From IMG/VR virus record IMGVR_UViG_3300026518_000007, positions 4,253-68,252 of that record: 64,000 bases of DNA; one strand, 5' to 3'. The DNA is from a virus. This document shows positions 3,100 through 22,817 of the stretch, one piece after another (positions within the stretch are counted from its first letter, which is position 1; each line of letters starts with the position of its first letter). Below the pieces are notes generated by a model. The model had not been told where the DNA came from and made no database searches. It worked only from the letters and a program-made list of their open reading frames with translations. Both the position numbers and the translations under genes were made by a program.

Positions 3100-3323
3100 A
3101 GATAATACATCTCCTAAGTTTAGATATACTTAGTAACGTGTTCCAATGCGTATTAAAAAATCTACCTCCTCAGTTATGTTTAACTGGATTTTGATACTAC
3201 CTCACTGTTATAGGAACTTATGCGACGGCTAAGTAACCTATAGCAACATGTACGACAAAGCATGTCGTATAATATTCTACCGATATATATTAAAATATAA
3301 ATATGTCGGTAGTTTTTTTTTTT
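3100..3323 (+). ncRNA. candidate small RNA with anti-SD motifs
   Basis: No ORF; bounded by the promoter motif and a hairpin plus 11 T; five hairpins; ACCTCCT at 3164-3170; CTACCTC twice. Confidence 0.5.
3277..3323 (+). terminator. intrinsic terminator
   Basis: CTACCGA...TCGGTAG stem followed by T11. Confidence 0.75.
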
Positions 3324-3324
3324 C

Positions 3325-3374
3325 TATATCTAAGGTATATCTACTTTGGTAGGTATACTTCAGATATTTTTTTT
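3325..3374 (+). terminator. second tandem hairpin plus T-tract
   Basis: ATATCT/AGATAT, GGTATA/TATACT and TCTAC/GTAGG stems then a T-run, just before the next RBS. Confidence 0.5.
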
Positions 3375-3391
3375 TAATAAGGACATGAGTT

Positions 3392-4210: not shown

Positions 4211-4396
4211 ATGACTAAAAAAGAGTACGATACGACCATAGCTCCTTTCATTAGGAATATTAGTTTAAGAAAATTTGACTTAGATGAAAATGGCATTCTG
4301 TCAGATACATTTTTCAATAACGGTACATTAAGTCCACTAATTATGAAAGAGCTTTTAATCATAACTAAAAATTATTACAAATCAAAAACTATGTAG
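4211..4396 (+). CDS. hypothetical protein
   Basis: AGGAG RBS; followed by a hairpin. Confidence 0.6.
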   Translation: MTKKEYDTTIAPFIRNISLRKFDLDENGILSDTFFNNGTLSPLIMKELLIITKNYYKSKTM

Positions 4397-9058: not shown

Positions 9059-10894
9059 ATGATACGAATGATAGATGGTAGGACTATTAGTGAAACTGAA
9101 TTAATAGATGATTTAAAAAAAGATAATATAATTAAGAATGAGCCTGATGCTGATTTATTCTCTTATTTAAGAAAATATTATACATCTTTTACACAACGTT
9201 CCATTATGGCTAATAGATTTAAAACTAAAGATAAATTAGACTTATACATTAATACTAAATTAAATACTATTATAAGTAATGAGTTTATAGAAGATAAATT
9301 ACCTTCTGTTAAAAAAGCCAGTGATGTACTTATAGATAATATAGTTAACAATAGGTTAATAGTAGTAGCTACTGATTATGATGTAGACGGAGTTACATCA
9401 GCAGTTATAGCTTATAAGATGTTCAAGAATTTATTTAAATATGATAATATAGATATCATAGTTAATAAAAGAGAGCATGGTAATGGTATTAATAACTATT
9501 TAACTAATGAACTTATAGAGTATAATAAGAAGATACCTATAGGTATGTTATATACTAGTGACCATGGAAGTCATGATAGGGTTAATTTAACTAGATTAAA
9601 AGAAGAAACTGGCATAGGAGTAGTAGTAACAGACCACCATATGTTCGATGATGAGGAAGCTCCTTTAAATATGGATGCATTCGTTAATCCTCAGATGTAT
9701 GATAATGAATTTACAGATATAACTGGAACACATGTTTCTTATTTAGTACTATTATACACATTAAGAAGATTAAAAGATGAACATCCTGAAGTAGAGATTA
9801 ATTATAATGTAGATTATTATTATTATTTATTAATATATGTAGGCATGACTACTATATCAGATTGTATGGATTTAAAATCTTATATAAATAGAAAAGTAGT
9901 TATAAAAGCATTAATAGATTTAAATAATGATACTATACAACACGATGTATTTTGGAAGCATATATTAAATAAGGTTGTTACATCATACGTGGTGGATGAA
10001 AGTACGTTAAGTTATAATGTTATACCTATGCTAAACACACCTGGTAGAATAGCTGACCCTAGATTATCATATGAACTTATGATATCAGAAGACCCTTTAA
10101 AAACTATAGATTTATATAACGATATAAAAGAGCTTAATGAAGAACGTAAAGATAAACAATCTATCGTAGTTAACTCTACTAAAAAAGAAGAGTATAGTAA
10201 TGATGTAGTTAAGGTCATGATGATAGAAGATAGTGAAGGTATACAAGGTATAGTAGCTAATAACGTTATGTATAATGAAGATTATAAAGTAGTTATATGT
10301 TTTACTAAGAAGAAGACTAAAGATGGTTTCATTTATATAGGTTCTGGTAGAGCGCAAGATGAAGAGATAAATATTAATAATATTTTAACTAGTATAGCAG
10401 AGTCATCCGATATCATCATACAACATGGTGGACATAAAAGTGCCATCGGCGCTAAAATAAAACCTGATTTAAAAAGATTCTATGATGCCTTAGTTAGTGA
10501 GATAAATAAGAAGAAAATATCTAAGATAGAGTATACTTATGTAGATGATTATATATACAGTATGAAGAAACTTATACTTAATATATTCGACATCATAGAG
10601 TTAGGACCTTATGGTATAGGATTTGAAAAACCATTATATGCTAGTGATTTTATTATAGTTAGTTACCGTATATTTAAAAAAGGTAATTATTATATATCTA
10701 TGAAAATAAAACTTAATAATAGCAGTAATAGTATTATAAGTGGTTTTAGTACTATTAAAGAAAAAGATTTAGATTATATAGAAGAAAACTTGTTGAAGAA
10801 TAAGAATGTCAGATTAGTATATTCTTTAAATGTTAATAGCTACAGAAACCTTAATAGTATACAGCTCAATATTGAGAAAATAATATTCATATAG
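9059..10894 (+). CDS. recJ: RecJ ssDNA 5'-3' exonuclease (DHH/DHHA1)
   Basis: TDYDVDG, SDHG, TDHH, TISD, NTPGR and HGGH motifs. Confidence 0.9.
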   Translation: MIRMIDGRTISETELIDDLKKDNIIKNEPDADLFSYLRKYYTSFTQRSIMANRFKTKDKLDLYINTKLNTIISNEFIEDKLPSVKKASDVLIDNIVNNRLIVVATDYDVDGVTSAVIAYKMFKNLFKYDNIDIIVNKREHGNGINNYLTNELIEYNKKIPIGMLYTSDHGSHDRVNLTRLKEETGIGVVVTDHHMFDDEEAPLNMDAFVNPQMYDNEFTDITGTHVSYLVLLYTLRRLKDEHPEVEINYNVDYYYYLLIYVGMTTISDCMDLKSYINRKVVIKALIDLNNDTIQHDVFWKHILNKVVTSYVVDESTLSYNVIPMLNTPGRIADPRLSYELMISEDPLKTIDLYNDIKELNEERKDKQSIVVNSTKKEEYSNDVVKVMMIEDSEGIQGIVANNVMYNEDYKVVICFTKKKTKDGFIYIGSGRAQDEEININNILTSIAESSDIIIQHGGHKSAIGAKIKPDLKRFYDALVSEINKKKISKIEYTYVDDYIYSMKKLILNIFDIIELGPYGIGFEKPLYASDFIIVSYRIFKKGNYYISMKIKLNNSSNSIISGFSTIKEKDLDYIEENLLKNKNVRLVYSLNVNSYRNLNSIQLNIEKIIFI

Positions 10895-10922: not shown

Positions 10923-10959
10923 GATAATTTGAATTAAATAATAAAAAAGGTATGAAGAA

Positions 10960-13050
10960 ATGAACATAAAAGCAGGATTAGAAACTATCTTCGAAGTTCA
11001 GAATGATGATAGTTTTATAACAGTTTTAAAAGAATTATATGTTAATTTAAAAAACATAACCATAGACTATAATGTAAATGGTGTAATTACTAAAGGCGAT
11101 TATGAAGAAGAGTTAAATACTATCATTAAGACATTTAAAGAAGACAGTACTGAAAGATTTGGTACGCCTATTATCTTAAGAAGTAGTAATACATTTGCAG
11201 TTATGCCTATCATGAATATGGATACTATGAAAAGTGGAATGGTTAGCTTTAAAAAAGATAGTAAGAAAGCCATGAAACAAATCAATGATTTTAAAAAATG
11301 GATTAGTAAGAATGAATTAGAGATAGATATAAAAAATATTAAAATAAATAATTTACCAGATGGTTTCTATTTTCCTTTATTTATAGATATTAAATCTATT
11401 TATACGACATTAGAAGAGGAGGAGTTTATAGCCATCATATTGCATGAGGTAGGCCATATCTTTACTCTATTAGAGATGTATAGTAAGACTACTGATACTA
11501 TAAGTAAATTAATAGATAGTTATTTAAAAGATTTTAGTTTAGATAAAACTATTACTAAGTTAAAGATAACTACTAATCCGTCTGATACTAAGTCAGATAC
11601 TATATATAAAATTTATGAAGCTATTTCTGACGATATGGGTATAACTGAAATAAATAATGGTAAAAGTAATGACTTTACCGATAGTGAATATGAAGCTGAT
11701 AACTTCGTAGCTTTATTTGGATATAGTGCTTATTTAACAACAGCTATTAACAAACTAACTGATATAGGAGCTTTAAAATATAGATACCTACCATTCTATC
11801 TTTTATTTGTTTTCTTATTAGATATATTAATAAGTTTAAGTTACCTATTTGTCATATTAGTCATAACAGGAACAGCCGCACAAGGTTTAGCTTTAATATT
11901 TATGATAGTTAACTTAGCCGCTATAGCTAAAATAGTTACTACTATGTATACAACTATAGAAGCACAAGGTAATAGAAACCCTACTGGTGATGAACATGGT
12001 GATGTTATGACAAGATATAAAAAAATAAGAATAGATATATTAAAAATAGTAAGAACACAACAGTTAGATAAGAAAGAATTAAATGCTTTAATTAAGCAAT
12101 TGGATATAGTAGATAAATCTATAACTGAAGTAGAGCAAACTCTTTTAAGTAGCTTGTTAGGTAGCTTAATATCACCTTTATTTAATATAAATATAAATAC
12201 TAGAGAACAGTTAGTTATGCTAATAGATAATTTAATCAATAATGAACAGCATCTCATGGCTAGTAAGTTTAAGAATGGATTAGAATATATGCGTGAGAAT
12301 GTCATAAATGTATCTAATACTAAATATTATACAGAAGTCGATATATGGAGTGATTATATTAAAAAATTGCTTATAGGCAATATTACAGCTTTAGAAAAAA
12401 TAAATAATAAAATAAATAAATATGGTTTAAGATTATTTTATAATAATACTAAACTAATGATAGAGAGTAACAGCATTGTTAATATTAAATCAGGTATATC
12501 GGGTTTTGGAGTATGGAAGATGAAAGGAAATACTACTGATGTTAAATCTGTTGTGAGTATTACCATAGATAGTGATAAAGTAGTATGGCAATTATTAAAT
12601 CCATATATTAAAGTATACGATATAGATTATATAGAAGTTAATAAAGTTAAAAATATGTATATAATGGAATTAGAATATCTATCTCCAGTATTAGATAAAA
12701 AACAAACTAAAGAGGTTTATGATATAGGTAAAGCTTTAGATAGTATTTATACGGATATAGGTATTAAGAATATAGATGATACTATATCTGCTTATTTTAA
12801 GTATTTTAAAGATAATAAAATAAAACTTAGTAAAGAAGTAGAAGAACAGTTTAATTTAATAAAAGAAGTTATTAATAAATTAGATTTTAAAGATAGAGCA
12901 TTAACATTAGATTTACATAAAGATAATTGGGGAATTAATGAGGATAAAAAGTTAGTTATGTTCGACCCTATATATGATAGAAACGGATTAGCGTTAGAAA
13001 CTAATAATAAGATAGATTTAAAACAATATAGCGATAACTTAAGCAAATAA
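10960..13050 (+). CDS. phiKZ-like head protein with HExxH, fused to a C-terminal protein-kinase-like domain
   Basis: LHEVGH, EYEADNF, TM block, then NGLE followed by SGISGFGVW, DLHKDNW and LVMFDP kinase-like motifs; paralog of 58367-59836. Confidence 0.7.
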   Translation: MNIKAGLETIFEVQNDDSFITVLKELYVNLKNITIDYNVNGVITKGDYEEELNTIIKTFKEDSTERFGTPIILRSSNTFAVMPIMNMDTMKSGMVSFKKDSKKAMKQINDFKKWISKNELEIDIKNIKINNLPDGFYFPLFIDIKSIYTTLEEEEFIAIILHEVGHIFTLLEMYSKTTDTISKLIDSYLKDFSLDKTITKLKITTNPSDTKSDTIYKIYEAISDDMGITEINNGKSNDFTDSEYEADNFVALFGYSAYLTTAINKLTDIGALKYRYLPFYLLFVFLLDILISLSYLFVILVITGTAAQGLALIFMIVNLAAIAKIVTTMYTTIEAQGNRNPTGDEHGDVMTRYKKIRIDILKIVRTQQLDKKELNALIKQLDIVDKSITEVEQTLLSSLLGSLISPLFNININTREQLVMLIDNLINNEQHLMASKFKNGLEYMRENVINVSNTKYYTEVDIWSDYIKKLLIGNITALEKINNKINKYGLRLFYNNTKLMIESNSIVNIKSGISGFGVWKMKGNTTDVKSVVSITIDSDKVVWQLLNPYIKVYDIDYIEVNKVKNMYIMELEYLSPVLDKKQTKEVYDIGKALDSIYTDIGIKNIDDTISAYFKYFKDNKIKLSKEVEEQFNLIKEVINKLDFKDRALTLDLHKDNWGINEDKKLVMFDPIYDRNGLALETNNKIDLKQYSDNLSK

Positions 13051-13055
13051 CATTC

Positions 13056-13103
13056 ATACACATTACCTGTGATGGGTAATGTGTATATGAATATTTTTTT
13101 TTT
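13056..13103 (+). terminator. hairpin terminator
   Basis: ATACACATTACC/GGTAATGTGTAT; T10 at 13094-13103. Confidence 0.75.
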
Positions 13104-13203
13104 ACTATGTGTGTTAATATTGAATTAAATATTGTCGAAGATGACCACAGTTAAATATAACATTATTGCATCAGTGTAGAAATATACTTGACCTAGTGTT
13201 GTT

Positions 13204-13408
13204 GCGCTCACTGCCATCTAGAGTACCTGTGAGGTGTATTCGTCCCATGACATAGCTTGTAGCTTATATCACTGGTCCTTGGAAAGGGACTGGTGATATA
13301 AGTAGTAGCGATACAAGTATCAATTCCAGCAGTTACTGGAACAGTGGGGGAAACGGGGGCAGGGTTTAAATACCTTATGGGTGGTGGTTGGGCGCTGGTG
13401 GTGAGCGT
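13204..13408 (+). ncRNA. candidate structured non-coding RNA, unknown class
   Basis: 49% GC island; 13-bp closing helix 13204-16/13396-408 with 3 G-U; 18-bp stem 13263-13302 capped by a GGAA tetraloop; no ORF. Confidence 0.55.
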
Positions 13409-13581
13409 TAAATATTAATGTTAAATATTAATGTTAATAATAGACAATAGTCTAATGTTATTATAGTGTTAAATATATATGATAATAAAATAATGATATA
13501 AGAGTGATAATAGATTACTATTAGACTATTGTTAATAATATATGATAGATAGATATAGACCAATATTAGACTATTGTTAAT
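13407..13581. repeat. AT-rich tandem and iteron-like repeats
   Basis: GTTAAATATTAAT x2 (13407-13432); TATTAGACTATTGTTAAT at 13519 and 13564; inverted 13-mer at 13444. Confidence 0.7.
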
Positions 13582-13750
13582 GGTAATAATAAAGAATGGA
13601 AAGTTATTAAGATAATAGTTTAACGTTATTTAATATTATATAGTTTAATATATACAAAGATATAATAGGTGTGAGATAATGATATATGTTATAGATAGTT
13701 TAGATGGTATATAGTGATACGGTATCTTAAGTTCTATAAGTATATAGTTA

Positions 13751-13765
13751 TATATTATTAAGATG
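13751..13765 (+). promoter_or_regulatory. early promoter motif upstream of phuZ
   Basis: TATATTATTAAGATG. Confidence 0.55.
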
Positions 13766-13847: not shown

Positions 13848-14876
13848 ATGAGTGATAGAAGTAATTTACATTTGATAGCATGCGGTGGTGCTGGTATAAA
13901 TATAGTTAGTGATATATATGGTAAGTTAAGTGGATTGGGTAAATCATACGCTAATGTTAGTGTTAGGAGTATAGATACTACCATTAAAACCATACAGGCG
14001 CATCCTATGTTAGGGGATACTTTTACTAGGATAGTGTCTTCTAAGTTATCTGGTAACGGGTTAGATGGTAGTGGTGGCGAAAGAGCTAACATGGACATCA
14101 TAGATGAGATACAGGGTTCTGTTAAAGAGTTCATGGATGTAGGGTTGTCTAATGAGAAGAACGATTATTACGTGATAGTTACTAGTGCTAGTGGTGGTTC
14201 TGGTAACCATATAGCTGCTGCATTATTAAAAAATATGTTGGCATTGGATTATAACGTTATAGTGGCTGCGGTTGGTGATGGTAGCAATGAGTTAACTCTT
14301 AATAATACTGTTAAAACATTAGCTACGTTTTATAAGGTGGCTGTAAAAGCTGGTGCTGCGTTGCCTGTTATATTTTATAATAATACATATAACGGTATGA
14401 CTACGTTAAGTACTGAACAAGGTGTTAATGATAAGATAGCTAAGATGTTAACCATCATATCAGCATTCATATCCGGTAGTGTGCAGAACATAGATAACCA
14501 GGACATGATAAACTTTTTTAAGCCTACCAACTATAGAACTTTTAAGATAGAACCAGGTATGTATAGTTTAGGTATCGCTAGAGGAGAGCTTAATGATGAG
14601 AATACGTTATTAGTAAGAACTCTTGTTAAAGAGGTAGCTGATGATGTTAAGATGTCTATAGTTCCTAGACATAACAAAACAGGTATAGTTAAAGGGGATA
14701 TGGCTGATGATTTTGATATCTATCCTATATATCTATTATATAGAAAACAGGTCATGAATGATGAGATGAGAAGACTTAAACAAGAGTTGGAGAGCATCAA
14801 ACGACAACATGAGACCGAGTCTAATGAGTTCGATGAGTTCGATGATATGGAAGATGATGATGGCATGGTATTGTAG
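13848..14876 (+). CDS. phuZ: PhuZ phage tubulin
   Basis: LIACGGAGINI, SASGGSG, IDNQD T7 loop; acidic C-tail DDDGMVL like the 201phi2-1 PhuZ tail. Confidence 0.95.
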   Translation: MSDRSNLHLIACGGAGINIVSDIYGKLSGLGKSYANVSVRSIDTTIKTIQAHPMLGDTFTRIVSSKLSGNGLDGSGGERANMDIIDEIQGSVKEFMDVGLSNEKNDYYVIVTSASGGSGNHIAAALLKNMLALDYNVIVAAVGDGSNELTLNNTVKTLATFYKVAVKAGAALPVIFYNNTYNGMTTLSTEQGVNDKIAKMLTIISAFISGSVQNIDNQDMINFFKPTNYRTFKIEPGMYSLGIARGELNDENTLLVRTLVKEVADDVKMSIVPRHNKTGIVKGDMADDFDIYPIYLLYRKQVMNDEMRRLKQELESIKRQHETESNEFDEFDDMEDDDGMVL

Positions 14877-22653: not shown

Positions 22654-22720
22654 ATGGTACTCCTTATATTAAAAATAATCAATCGAAGTTAAATATTTTA
22701 ATTCTAAAAAAAGTTATACA

Positions 22721-22735: not shown

Positions 22736-22817
22736 AGACAATAGTCTTGTATACAAAACTAAACATAAAGGATTCGTTATTTTAACAATACCTAATATCG
22801 ACCTAAAGGGTCTGTTA

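Follow-up and report, generated by a model that had tools for sequence, protein, structure and literature searches.

What is a GC-rich patch without an open reading frame (ORF) doing upstream of the tubulin gene phuZ in an otherwise very AT-rich phage? We addressed this question in a 64,000-nt stretch of DNA (the window; coordinates refer to it unless stated otherwise) that spans positions 4,253 to 68,252 of IMG/VR virus record IMGVR_UViG_3300026518_000007. The 99,325-bp record has a G+C content of 28% (mean 0.284) and derives from an uncultured, PhuZ-encoding phage that is present in hydrothermal-vent metagenomes of three studies. The patch, at 13204..13408, is real and non-random, and constitutes a discrete, strongly structured element of 205 nt that occurs once in the record. 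We consider it to be a functional + strand RNA with a probability of roughly two in three, and it is probably a stand-alone, lineage-restricted + strand non-coding RNA gene representing a new family.

The preliminary description of this DNA had reported a GC-rich region free of ORFs, and both properties are borne out. G and C make up 103 of the 210 nt in 13201-13410, 200-nt windows reach a G+C fraction of up to 0.485 compared with 0.20-0.26 in the flanks, and the element is the top 120-nt GC peak of the record (0.508; mean 0.284, standard deviation 0.055). No ORF of at least 40 aa overlaps it. Stop-to-stop frames extend to at most 38 aa on the + strand and to 68 aa, with no start codon, on the - strand, and none of the open frames matched Pfam or PHROGs. 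A pseudogene or hidden ORF was rejected as an explanation, since no frame had a family match and none resembled the small ORFs present at this position in relatives.

The core (13204..13408, +, 205 nt) is predicted to fold as a closed three-way junction. Its ends pair in the terminal helix P1 (13204-16/13396-408, +), a 13-bp helix with 3 G-U pairs that had been proposed at the outset and is present in the minimum free energy (MFE) structure with a pair probability of 0.98. Beyond P1, a four-part extension (13217-21, 13224-37, 13238-41 and 13242-46) completes an interrupted closing stem of 41 bp, 14 of them G-U, whose 5' strand (13204..13246, +) finds its partners in the G-rich 3' strand (13356..13408, +). 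The apical arm (13255..13318, +) totals 26 bp, with a 7-bp helix (13255-61/13312-18) and a 19-bp helix (13262-80/13285-303) separated by an 8-nt 3' bulge (AGUAGCGA, 13304-11) and capped by a GGAA tetraloop (13281-84). The GGAA-capped stem is thus present as first described, although with 19 bp and 4 G-U pairs (13262-80/13285-303) rather than 18 bp, and its GCUUGUA/UACAAGU extension holds across the bulge.

On the 3' side of the apical arm, the small hairpin UUCCAG-CAGUUA-CUGGAA (13324..13341, +; 6 bp, 13324-29/13336-41) agrees with the initial proposal and has a probability of 0.91. It is followed by a single-stranded, G-rich junction of 14 nt (CAGUGGGGGAAACG, 13342..13355, +). Across the record, the + strand has seven G5 runs, two of which fall in this junction together with 13355-59. 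Two further stems that had been proposed, UACCU/AGGUG and CCCAUG/UAUGGG, are possible alternatives, but both the MFE structure and the ensemble prefer the long-range helices 13224-37/13370-83 and 13242-46/13356-60. Pair probabilities at 37 °C are 0.71 for 13255-61/13312-18 and 0.88-0.99 for the other helices, and P1 and the apical stem keep at least 0.93 at 70 °C, which is relevant to a vent phage. No pseudoknot of at least 5 bp was found among the unpaired segments. Upstream of the core, an AU-rich linker or leader (13151..13203, +) can form a hairpin of its own (13157-13202, in a fold of 13098-13450).

The predicted structure is far more stable than composition would lead one to expect. The + strand MFE is -91.6 kcal/mol (range for the core, -89 to -91.6 kcal/mol) compared with a mean of -63.8 for dinucleotide shuffles (z -6.33; 0 of 200 as good), and the - strand reaches -56.3 kcal/mol (z -3.76). 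No other 210-nt window of the record, on either strand, is as stable as the element, and those with 40-46% GC reach only -40 to -62 kcal/mol; this ranking uses raw MFE, a regression z-score having been dropped with the element itself dominating the high-GC end. Two other GC-rich non-coding islands fold like shuffles (z about -1.5). With DNA parameters, the z-scores are only -3.8 and -3.2 on the two strands.

The strand gap of 32.9 kcal/mol exceeds that of shuffles (20.5 +/- 4.6) by about 2.7 standard deviations. Among the 73 predicted + strand pairs, 19 are G-U and become C-A mismatches on the opposite strand. The earlier argument that these pairs point to the + strand therefore had the direction right, but the G+U-rich composition of the + strand accounts for about two thirds of this asymmetry. 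Taken with the DNA-parameter folds, the strand gap and the G-U pairs favour a + strand RNA over a - strand RNA or a DNA structure as the better explanation of the modelled fold.

Explanations at the level of DNA, such as a cruciform, a packaging or recombination site, or a chance GC-rich patch, have in their favour that the inverted repeats exist in the DNA and that both strands beat shuffles under DNA parameters. We judge them very improbable, because RNA parameters, and one strand in particular, give a far more stable fold, the observed energy lies beyond every one of the 200 shuffles and conservation is far above that of the flanks. A function confined to a genome end had also been considered initially; the locus is internal, at differing positions, in two independent 166.6-kb assemblies, and so does not represent a contig or genome end.

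Conservation could be evaluated in a relative that occurs in contigs of runs X4 and X5 (two runs of a third study; pieces of 11.8 and 19.5 kb) and is about 10% diverged in the neighbouring gene. Over the last 202 coding nt ahead of the stop codon, this gene has 20 listed substitutions, 15 of them at third codon positions, and 13051-13111 differs at 5 positions, with a single further indel seen in one run only. The visible 13112-13388 differs only by 13289 A>G, 13385 T>G and a 1-nt deletion at 13368, and the AU-rich linker 13151-13203 has no listed difference (Fisher test of core versus coding stretch divergence, p = 1e-4). On the far side, 13419-13700 is replaced by 272 unrelated letters, so that the block of conservation begins and ends abruptly, at about 13112 and 13419. 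The replaced tract looks like a hypervariable or recombination-prone junction. For another phage of the group, two independent assemblies (L009 and L010) break at precisely the same point, 95 nt ahead of phuZ.

A second haplotype of the same phage contributes one more variant, 13274 G>A, which converts a G-U pair of the apical arm to A-U and keeps the pairing. The variant 13289 A>G converts U-A to U-G, so that pairing is kept on the + strand only, and is the sole variant that discriminates between strands. The deletion at 13368 and 13385 T>G fall in a predicted bulge and internal loop. All four natural variants are compatible with the modelled fold.

The arrangement of signals around the element suggests a transcription unit of its own, given that it sits behind a strong terminator and after a sequence module found only here and before one other GC-rich island, described below as island B. 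The terminator, which the preliminary description had placed ahead of the element, was recovered by inverted-repeat and terminator scans as a hairpin at 13056-13086 with a T-run; it is the intrinsic terminator of the upstream 696-aa gene (13056..13101, +), with a 12-bp hairpin whose stem ends in CATA...TATG, followed by a displaced T-run. Read as 13087-13055, it is also terminator-like on the - strand, where the scan had its sole terminator-like match. Similar CATA...TATG gene-end hairpins, with a T-run 4-8 nt later, occur at 2218, 7719, 10920, 13086, 17062, 20888, 23766, 32216 and 39246, and this hairpin family comprises terminators with a fixed stem base that possibly have a second signal role.

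Downstream of the terminator lies the upstream module, TTGAATTAAATA-N6-AGATGACCACAG (13107..13150, +; about 45 nt), a promoter-like signal or 5' leader of the RNA. When the element region and island B are aligned locally, this module scores highest (30, compared with 19 +/- 2.5 and a maximum of 29 for shuffles), and the composite TTGAwTTAAATA-N5-8-AGATrACCAyAG occurs only twice in 99 kb, once before each island; it had no match in viral contigs. A TTGAAT motif that had been noted at 13120 does exist, but as part of the longer recurring motif TGAATTAAATA (13121), which has four occurrences in the window against 0.46 expected, all on the + strand, three of the four just before a gene or the element. 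Copies of TGAATTAAATA, all +, lie at 10930, 13121, 52440 and, outside the window, 93637 (G000); they stand 15-35 nt ahead of the start codons of three genes and 83 nt ahead of the RNA core. The motif may represent a promoter class distinct from the early one. A scan for sigma-70-type promoters found sites to be no more frequent than in shuffles.

Island B (G000:C1:1447-1705, = L015:1447-1705) is located upstream of the window, is GC-rich (44-48%) and non-coding, and lies at a divergent gene switch with no co-directional gene upstream, at the cumulative GC-skew minimum of the record. The aligned stretch (G000 1510-1705) has the module upstream and a G-rich 3' end before an A-rich tract. Its fold (-62 kcal/mol on the + strand versus -38 on the -, z -1.5) is not significant, and it has no Rfam match. 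The two cores are not significantly alike (z 0.5-1.5), and because their joint consensus fold is only suggestive (z -2.7 versus column shuffles), we claim no shared structure. The shared module may be the promoter, or promoter plus 5' leader, of two non-coding units, a modestly supported inference for which the promoter reading draws on the occurrence of the module only before these islands. It is rather doubtful, albeit conceivable, that the element and island B are the first of a set of phage-specific structured RNAs that would target core machinery of the cell or of the phage, acting as host-polymerase traps or as origin-marking primer RNAs.

The preliminary description had also linked the element to phuZ, the spindle or packaging, a connection that we do not find. 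The gene has a promoter motif of its own, an early-promoter 12-mer (ATATATTATTAA, 13750..13761, +) about 90 nt before its ATG, and four relatives with the same gene order have no element upstream of phuZ. Likewise, only 50 nt precede phuZ in phiKZ, with no match to a covariance model of the element.

An exact copy of ATATATTATTAA on the - strand (13532..13543) faces the element and is a possible source of antisense transcript. We find it distinctly improbable that the relevant product is such an antisense RNA, running from 13543-13532 to the bidirectional terminator at 13087-13055, even though the exact 12-mer points at the element, the scan's only terminator-like match is on this strand, and the - strand still beats shuffles (z -3.76). 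This strand loses 35 kcal/mol and 19 pairs turn into C-A mismatches, 13289 A>G preserves its pair on the + strand only, and the CAATAG that follows the - strand 12-mer fits the pattern of the six + copies only loosely.

The same surroundings could be taken to indicate an RNA structure acting in cis, as an RNase III site, a 3' cap for read-through from the upstream gene, or an insulator between late and early transcription. The element does lie between a putative late-type structural gene and an early-promoter region. RNase III acts on long, nearly perfect duplexes, and the near-perfect 26-bp duplex of the apical arm would be a substrate. Moreover, phiKZ makes many short RNAs derived from untranslated regions (UTRs) (PMC10914365, PMC8545117). 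A cis-acting role nevertheless seems quite unlikely, as the strong terminator separates the upstream gene from the element, a separate promoter serves phuZ 340 nt downstream, the module also precedes island B, where no co-directional gene lies upstream, and 205 nt with a three-way junction far exceeds what such sites need.

In keeping with the initial impression that the element fits no recognizable RNA class, a search of the whole window with the 4227 covariance models of Rfam 15 had no hits at gathering thresholds. Relaxing the threshold to E<=10 (for 901 nt and 341 nt) recovered only miRNA, snoRNA and lncRNA noise far below gathering scores; the models for RNase P, SRP, Y RNA, riboswitches and small ribozymes had no match in the element. 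ARAGORN identified no tRNA or tmRNA genes in the window or the rest of the record. As a positive control, the Rfam search recovered RF00028 (E 6.2e-7), a group I intron, from phuZ of a relative (L013), and as the same search found nothing in the element, the earlier suggestion of a ribozyme is not supported. BLASTN of the element and its 4-kb context against 50,697 phage records had no match.

Exact-word scans with 17-19-mers covered IMG/VR viral contigs, JGI metagenomes and 185,579 species genomes. The word GGGGGAAACGGGGGCAGGG had one match in viral contigs, a chance occurrence in the coding sequence of a GC-rich phage, and 23 in JGI metagenomes, none fitting the covariance model. All nine viral matches of TTCCAGCAGTTACTGGAAC encode an I/L-P-A-V-T-G-T peptide in three unrelated gene families and are therefore considered coincidental, and GGTGGTGGTTGGGCGCTGG had zero matches. 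A covariance model of the element (R1; built from a single sequence, 73 pairs) found only the element itself: the remainder of the window and record, the L002 record and phiKZ (NC_004629) had no match, nor did the loci of eight relatives (for L050 and L051 also with filters off). Judged by these comparisons, the element belongs to no described RNA family, and nothing in Rfam resembles it. We found no description of such an RNA in the literature, and no paper pairing chimallin with hydrothermal vents.

Several specific candidates were rejected. A solitary repeat mimic acting as an RNA anti-CRISPR had no match to CRISPR-DR families, and the 17-mer GGAACAGTGGGGGAAAC had 36 single, scattered matches and no arrays in the 185,579 species genomes, a weak test given that the host is unidentified. 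For a retron, no PF00078 reverse transcriptase is present in the 99-kb record (control genomes were positive), and the neighbours are the 696-aa gene and phuZ. The element is not a group I intron, as it has no RF00028 match and is intergenic, flanked by a terminated gene and a complete phuZ. A base-pairing regulator was dismissed because complementarity of at least 9 nt between the unpaired segments and the record amounts to scattered chance matches only.

The history of the locus was reconstructed from relatives. A PhuZ search returned 17 proteins, only one of which, on a contig that starts inside an intron, falls between 48% and 100% identity. Relatives with PhuZ 45% identical (L008 and L011) have two small ORFs at the site, and one with PhuZ 48% identical (L014) also has ORFs there; none has the element, which has no similarity to these ORFs. 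In L050 and L051, the order RecJ, 696-aa-type gene (34% identical), phuZ and downstream genes is the same, with only a 233-nt AT-rich spacer before phuZ. A search with the 696-aa gene added one syntenic relative, also without the element; its C-terminal 250 aa as query found nothing, and a search with a 603-aa ORF found no relatives among viral contigs. Since syntenic relatives have no element, it was inserted in a lineage-specific manner and does not belong to a conserved phuZ module.

Directly 3' of the core, tandem GTTAAATATTAAT repeats (13407..13432, +) form the right boundary of both the insertion and the conserved block. This repeat region is 88% identical to the L050 spacer over 25 nt, and the L050/L051 spacer keeps the tandem GTTAAA.ATTA..GTTAAATATTAA motif that directly follows the element in the window. 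By this sequence comparison the GTTAAATATTAAT repeat motif is ancestral, and the insertion of the element with its leader therefore took place between the end of the gene and a regulatory motif that predates it.

Such an insertion could also be selfish or a relict without phage function, either a GC-rich palindrome like a miniature inverted-repeat transposable element (MITE) or a foreign scrap; inverted repeats fold by construction, and near-identity would reflect recent spread or recombination. Consistent with this scenario are its restriction to one sublineage, with a short spacer or small ORFs at the site in relatives, its GC content of 49% in a 28% genome, the sharp block edges at ~13112 and ~13419, and the presence of the 9-nt word GTTAAATAT on either side, at 13150 and 13407. 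This word belongs to the local, ancestral repeated motif and so need not be a target duplication. None of the other contigs searched has the element, its surroundings encode no transposase, reverse transcriptase or homing enzyme, and the upstream module is common to it and a different island. Having 19 G-U pairs and no A-C mismatch in the + helices, with an RNA-specific excess of stability, would be unexpected for DNA repeats, and we hold a selfish or relict origin to be unlikely. Multiple copies, as expected of a MITE-like element, were not detected, as BLAST and the covariance model each recovered a single copy across the window and the remainder of the record; the P1 arms are identical at 10 of 13 positions as DNA repeats, and the left arm is 45 nt inside the candidate insertion.

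The AT-rich DNA between the element and phuZ, 440 nt with direct and inverted repeats, is the basis for the main rival to a functional + strand RNA as the product of a stand-alone gene. A transcript-primed replication origin would have the module drive a structured, G-rich RNA, which would serve as primer or form an R-loop at the AT-rich repeats. Origins of this kind include those of ColE1 RNA II, T4 oriF/oriG and the mitochondrial conserved sequence block (CSB) region, and the layout here, with a promoter-like signal, a structured G-rich transcript and AT-rich repeats, is like that of ColE1 RNA II and T4 oriF/oriG. The 3' half of the element has G5 runs and GGUGG repeats and adjoins the AT-rich tract, and island B shares the module, the G-rich 3' end before an A-rich tract, the GC-skew minimum and the divergent gene switch. 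Unlike the known examples, the G-rich 3' half is predicted to be locked in intramolecular helices (probabilities of at least 0.88) that would compete with an R-loop, the element has no GC-skew turning point, and the AT-rich region, which holds promoter- and operator-like motifs recurring at other promoters, is not conserved with the RNA and was replaced wholesale in the close relative that kept it. As syntenic relatives without the element also speak against this model, we consider it unlikely, if less so than any of the other rivals.

How might a functional + strand RNA work? In our proposed mechanism, the module would drive transcription with a start at about 13135-13150, and the closed ends would yield a stable RNA of about 200-280 nt. 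This RNA would then act in trans by being bound by a protein, as a decoy or scaffold, rather than by pairing with phage mRNAs. The closed ends and stable predicted fold, the neighbouring genes, none of which is an RNA-guided enzyme or reverse transcriptase, and the lack of pairing targets point this way, and we propose a trans-acting, protein-binding RNA tentatively, at somewhat less than even odds. The most concrete version is a 6S-like decoy that traps host RNA polymerase. The phage presumably has polymerases of its own, as taken from the gene list of the preliminary description, and a polymerase trap would suit such a phage. Taken by itself, a trap for host RNA polymerase specifically is unlikely.

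Among known RNAs, the predicted outline is closest to that of 6S RNA (RF00013), which is likewise ~200 nt long, has its ends paired in a long irregular closing stem, and has an unpaired centre with a small 3'-side hairpin followed by an apical stem. The overall architecture thus leaves the initially proposed 6S-like decoy possible, whereas membership by covariance model fails.

A number of observations weigh against a functional + strand RNA or its 6S-like version. No Rfam 6S model matches even at E<=10 (901 nt, 341 nt). The centre of the element is a three-way junction, with 8 nt on the 5' side of the 'bubble' and 5 + 14 nt plus the hairpin on the 3' side, and a GNRA loop caps the apical arm, whose 26 bp form a regular duplex; the short 5' side and the regular apical stem are unlike those of typical 6S RNA. 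None of the RNA runs contains the element. Covariation, which the preliminary description had looked to homologues for, is absent, with 0 pairs altered on both sides, the copies compared being near-identical. The listing of differences omits the ends of pieces, and 13389-13419, including the 3' strand of P1, is unseen in the X4/X5 relative, where the low divergence could reflect recent recombination between lineages, not constraint. G-U pairs constitute 26% of those predicted, and because this share is high, the middle of the closing stem is the least certain part of the model. Finally, the only exact copy of a recognized promoter that faces the element is on the - strand, and the module, instead of being a promoter, may represent a 5' leader.

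Non-coding RNAs have been described from phiKZ by Grad-seq and ONT-cappable-seq, including the ~100-nt 3'UTR_PHIKZ298, the ~180-nt 5'UTR-p40 and 17 further 5'UTR-derived candidates, with no function assigned (PMC8545117, PMC10914365). A 2026 review of jumbo phages only mentions that phiKZ expresses non-coding RNAs (PMC13282480). Like the element, these are structured, 70-200 nt long and without an ORF, and belong to a PhuZ-encoding jumbo phage; they differ in being UTR-derived and described as two stem-loops, whereas the element is behind a terminator and is modelled with closed ends and a three-way junction. The phiKZ genome (NC_004629) has no match to R1 and no counterpart before its phuZ.

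Adenovirus VA RNA I and the phi29 packaging RNA (pRNA), of ~120-175 nt, combine a terminal stem in which the two ends pair, a junction at the centre and a long duplex at the apex, and work by protein binding. They have no sequence or model similarity to the element (the Rfam pRNA model had no match), their hosts and partners differ, and the element has no complementary loop pair of the kind by which phi29 pRNA forms rings. Closer at hand, the group I intron in phuZ of L013 is also a GC-richer structured RNA at the phuZ locus of the same phage group; it interrupts phuZ and matches RF00028, whereas the element is intergenic and shares no sequence with it. This intron (L013:6-541; ENA contig REYS20-1_SAMN12239315 scaffold_28061) is inserted near codon 77. 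The L013 PhuZ is 85% identical over residues 78-342, and the contig begins inside the intron, leaving exon 1 unseen.

With regard to the neighbouring genes, a RecJ-like gene (9059-10894) is followed by the 696-aa gene (10960-13050) directly upstream of the element, a putative head-protein/kinase fusion for which only phrog_2767, of unassigned function, was seen; it has a stop codon and terminator. The phuZ gene (13848-14876, +; 342 aa), outside the element, is complete, covering 3-323 of the 323-position profile of the PhuZ tubulin phrog_4733 (E 3.4e-44). Palindrome-like AGACAATAGTCT / TTAGACTATTGTTAAT sequences occur before phuZ at 13444-13459, 13519-13536 and 13564-13581, and again at 22736, after an early-promoter word at 22720. 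They look like an operator for a regulator of the early promoter rather than a centromere.

Elsewhere in the record, the second most stable 210-nt window, 3169-3378 (-66.6 kcal/mol at only 29% GC), is non-coding, with an exact copy of the early-promoter word ahead of it (3084) and a T11 terminator at its end. Two independent ENA assemblies, L004 (166,679 bp) and L005 (166,563 bp), place the locus at ~84.5 kb and ~8.6 kb, respectively. Their lengths and the differing coordinates suggest a complete, circularly permuted genome of ~166.5 kb, and as a consequence the CheckV completeness of 36% for the 99-kb record may be too low.

The value of the finding is limited by an uncultured phage, a single sublineage and zero covariation. 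Even so, the element shows that genes of this kind can be picked out of very AT-rich phage genomes simply by screening for GC content and fold stability. Should a functional + strand RNA be correct, the element would represent a new RNA family, since nothing in Rfam resembles it. To our knowledge, nucleus-forming jumbo phages have been studied almost wholly through their proteins, with their RNAs represented by a few UTR fragments from phiKZ, and we know of no replication origin or means of host-transcription shut-off established for them; the element would, if our reading is true, provide a new handle on one or the other.

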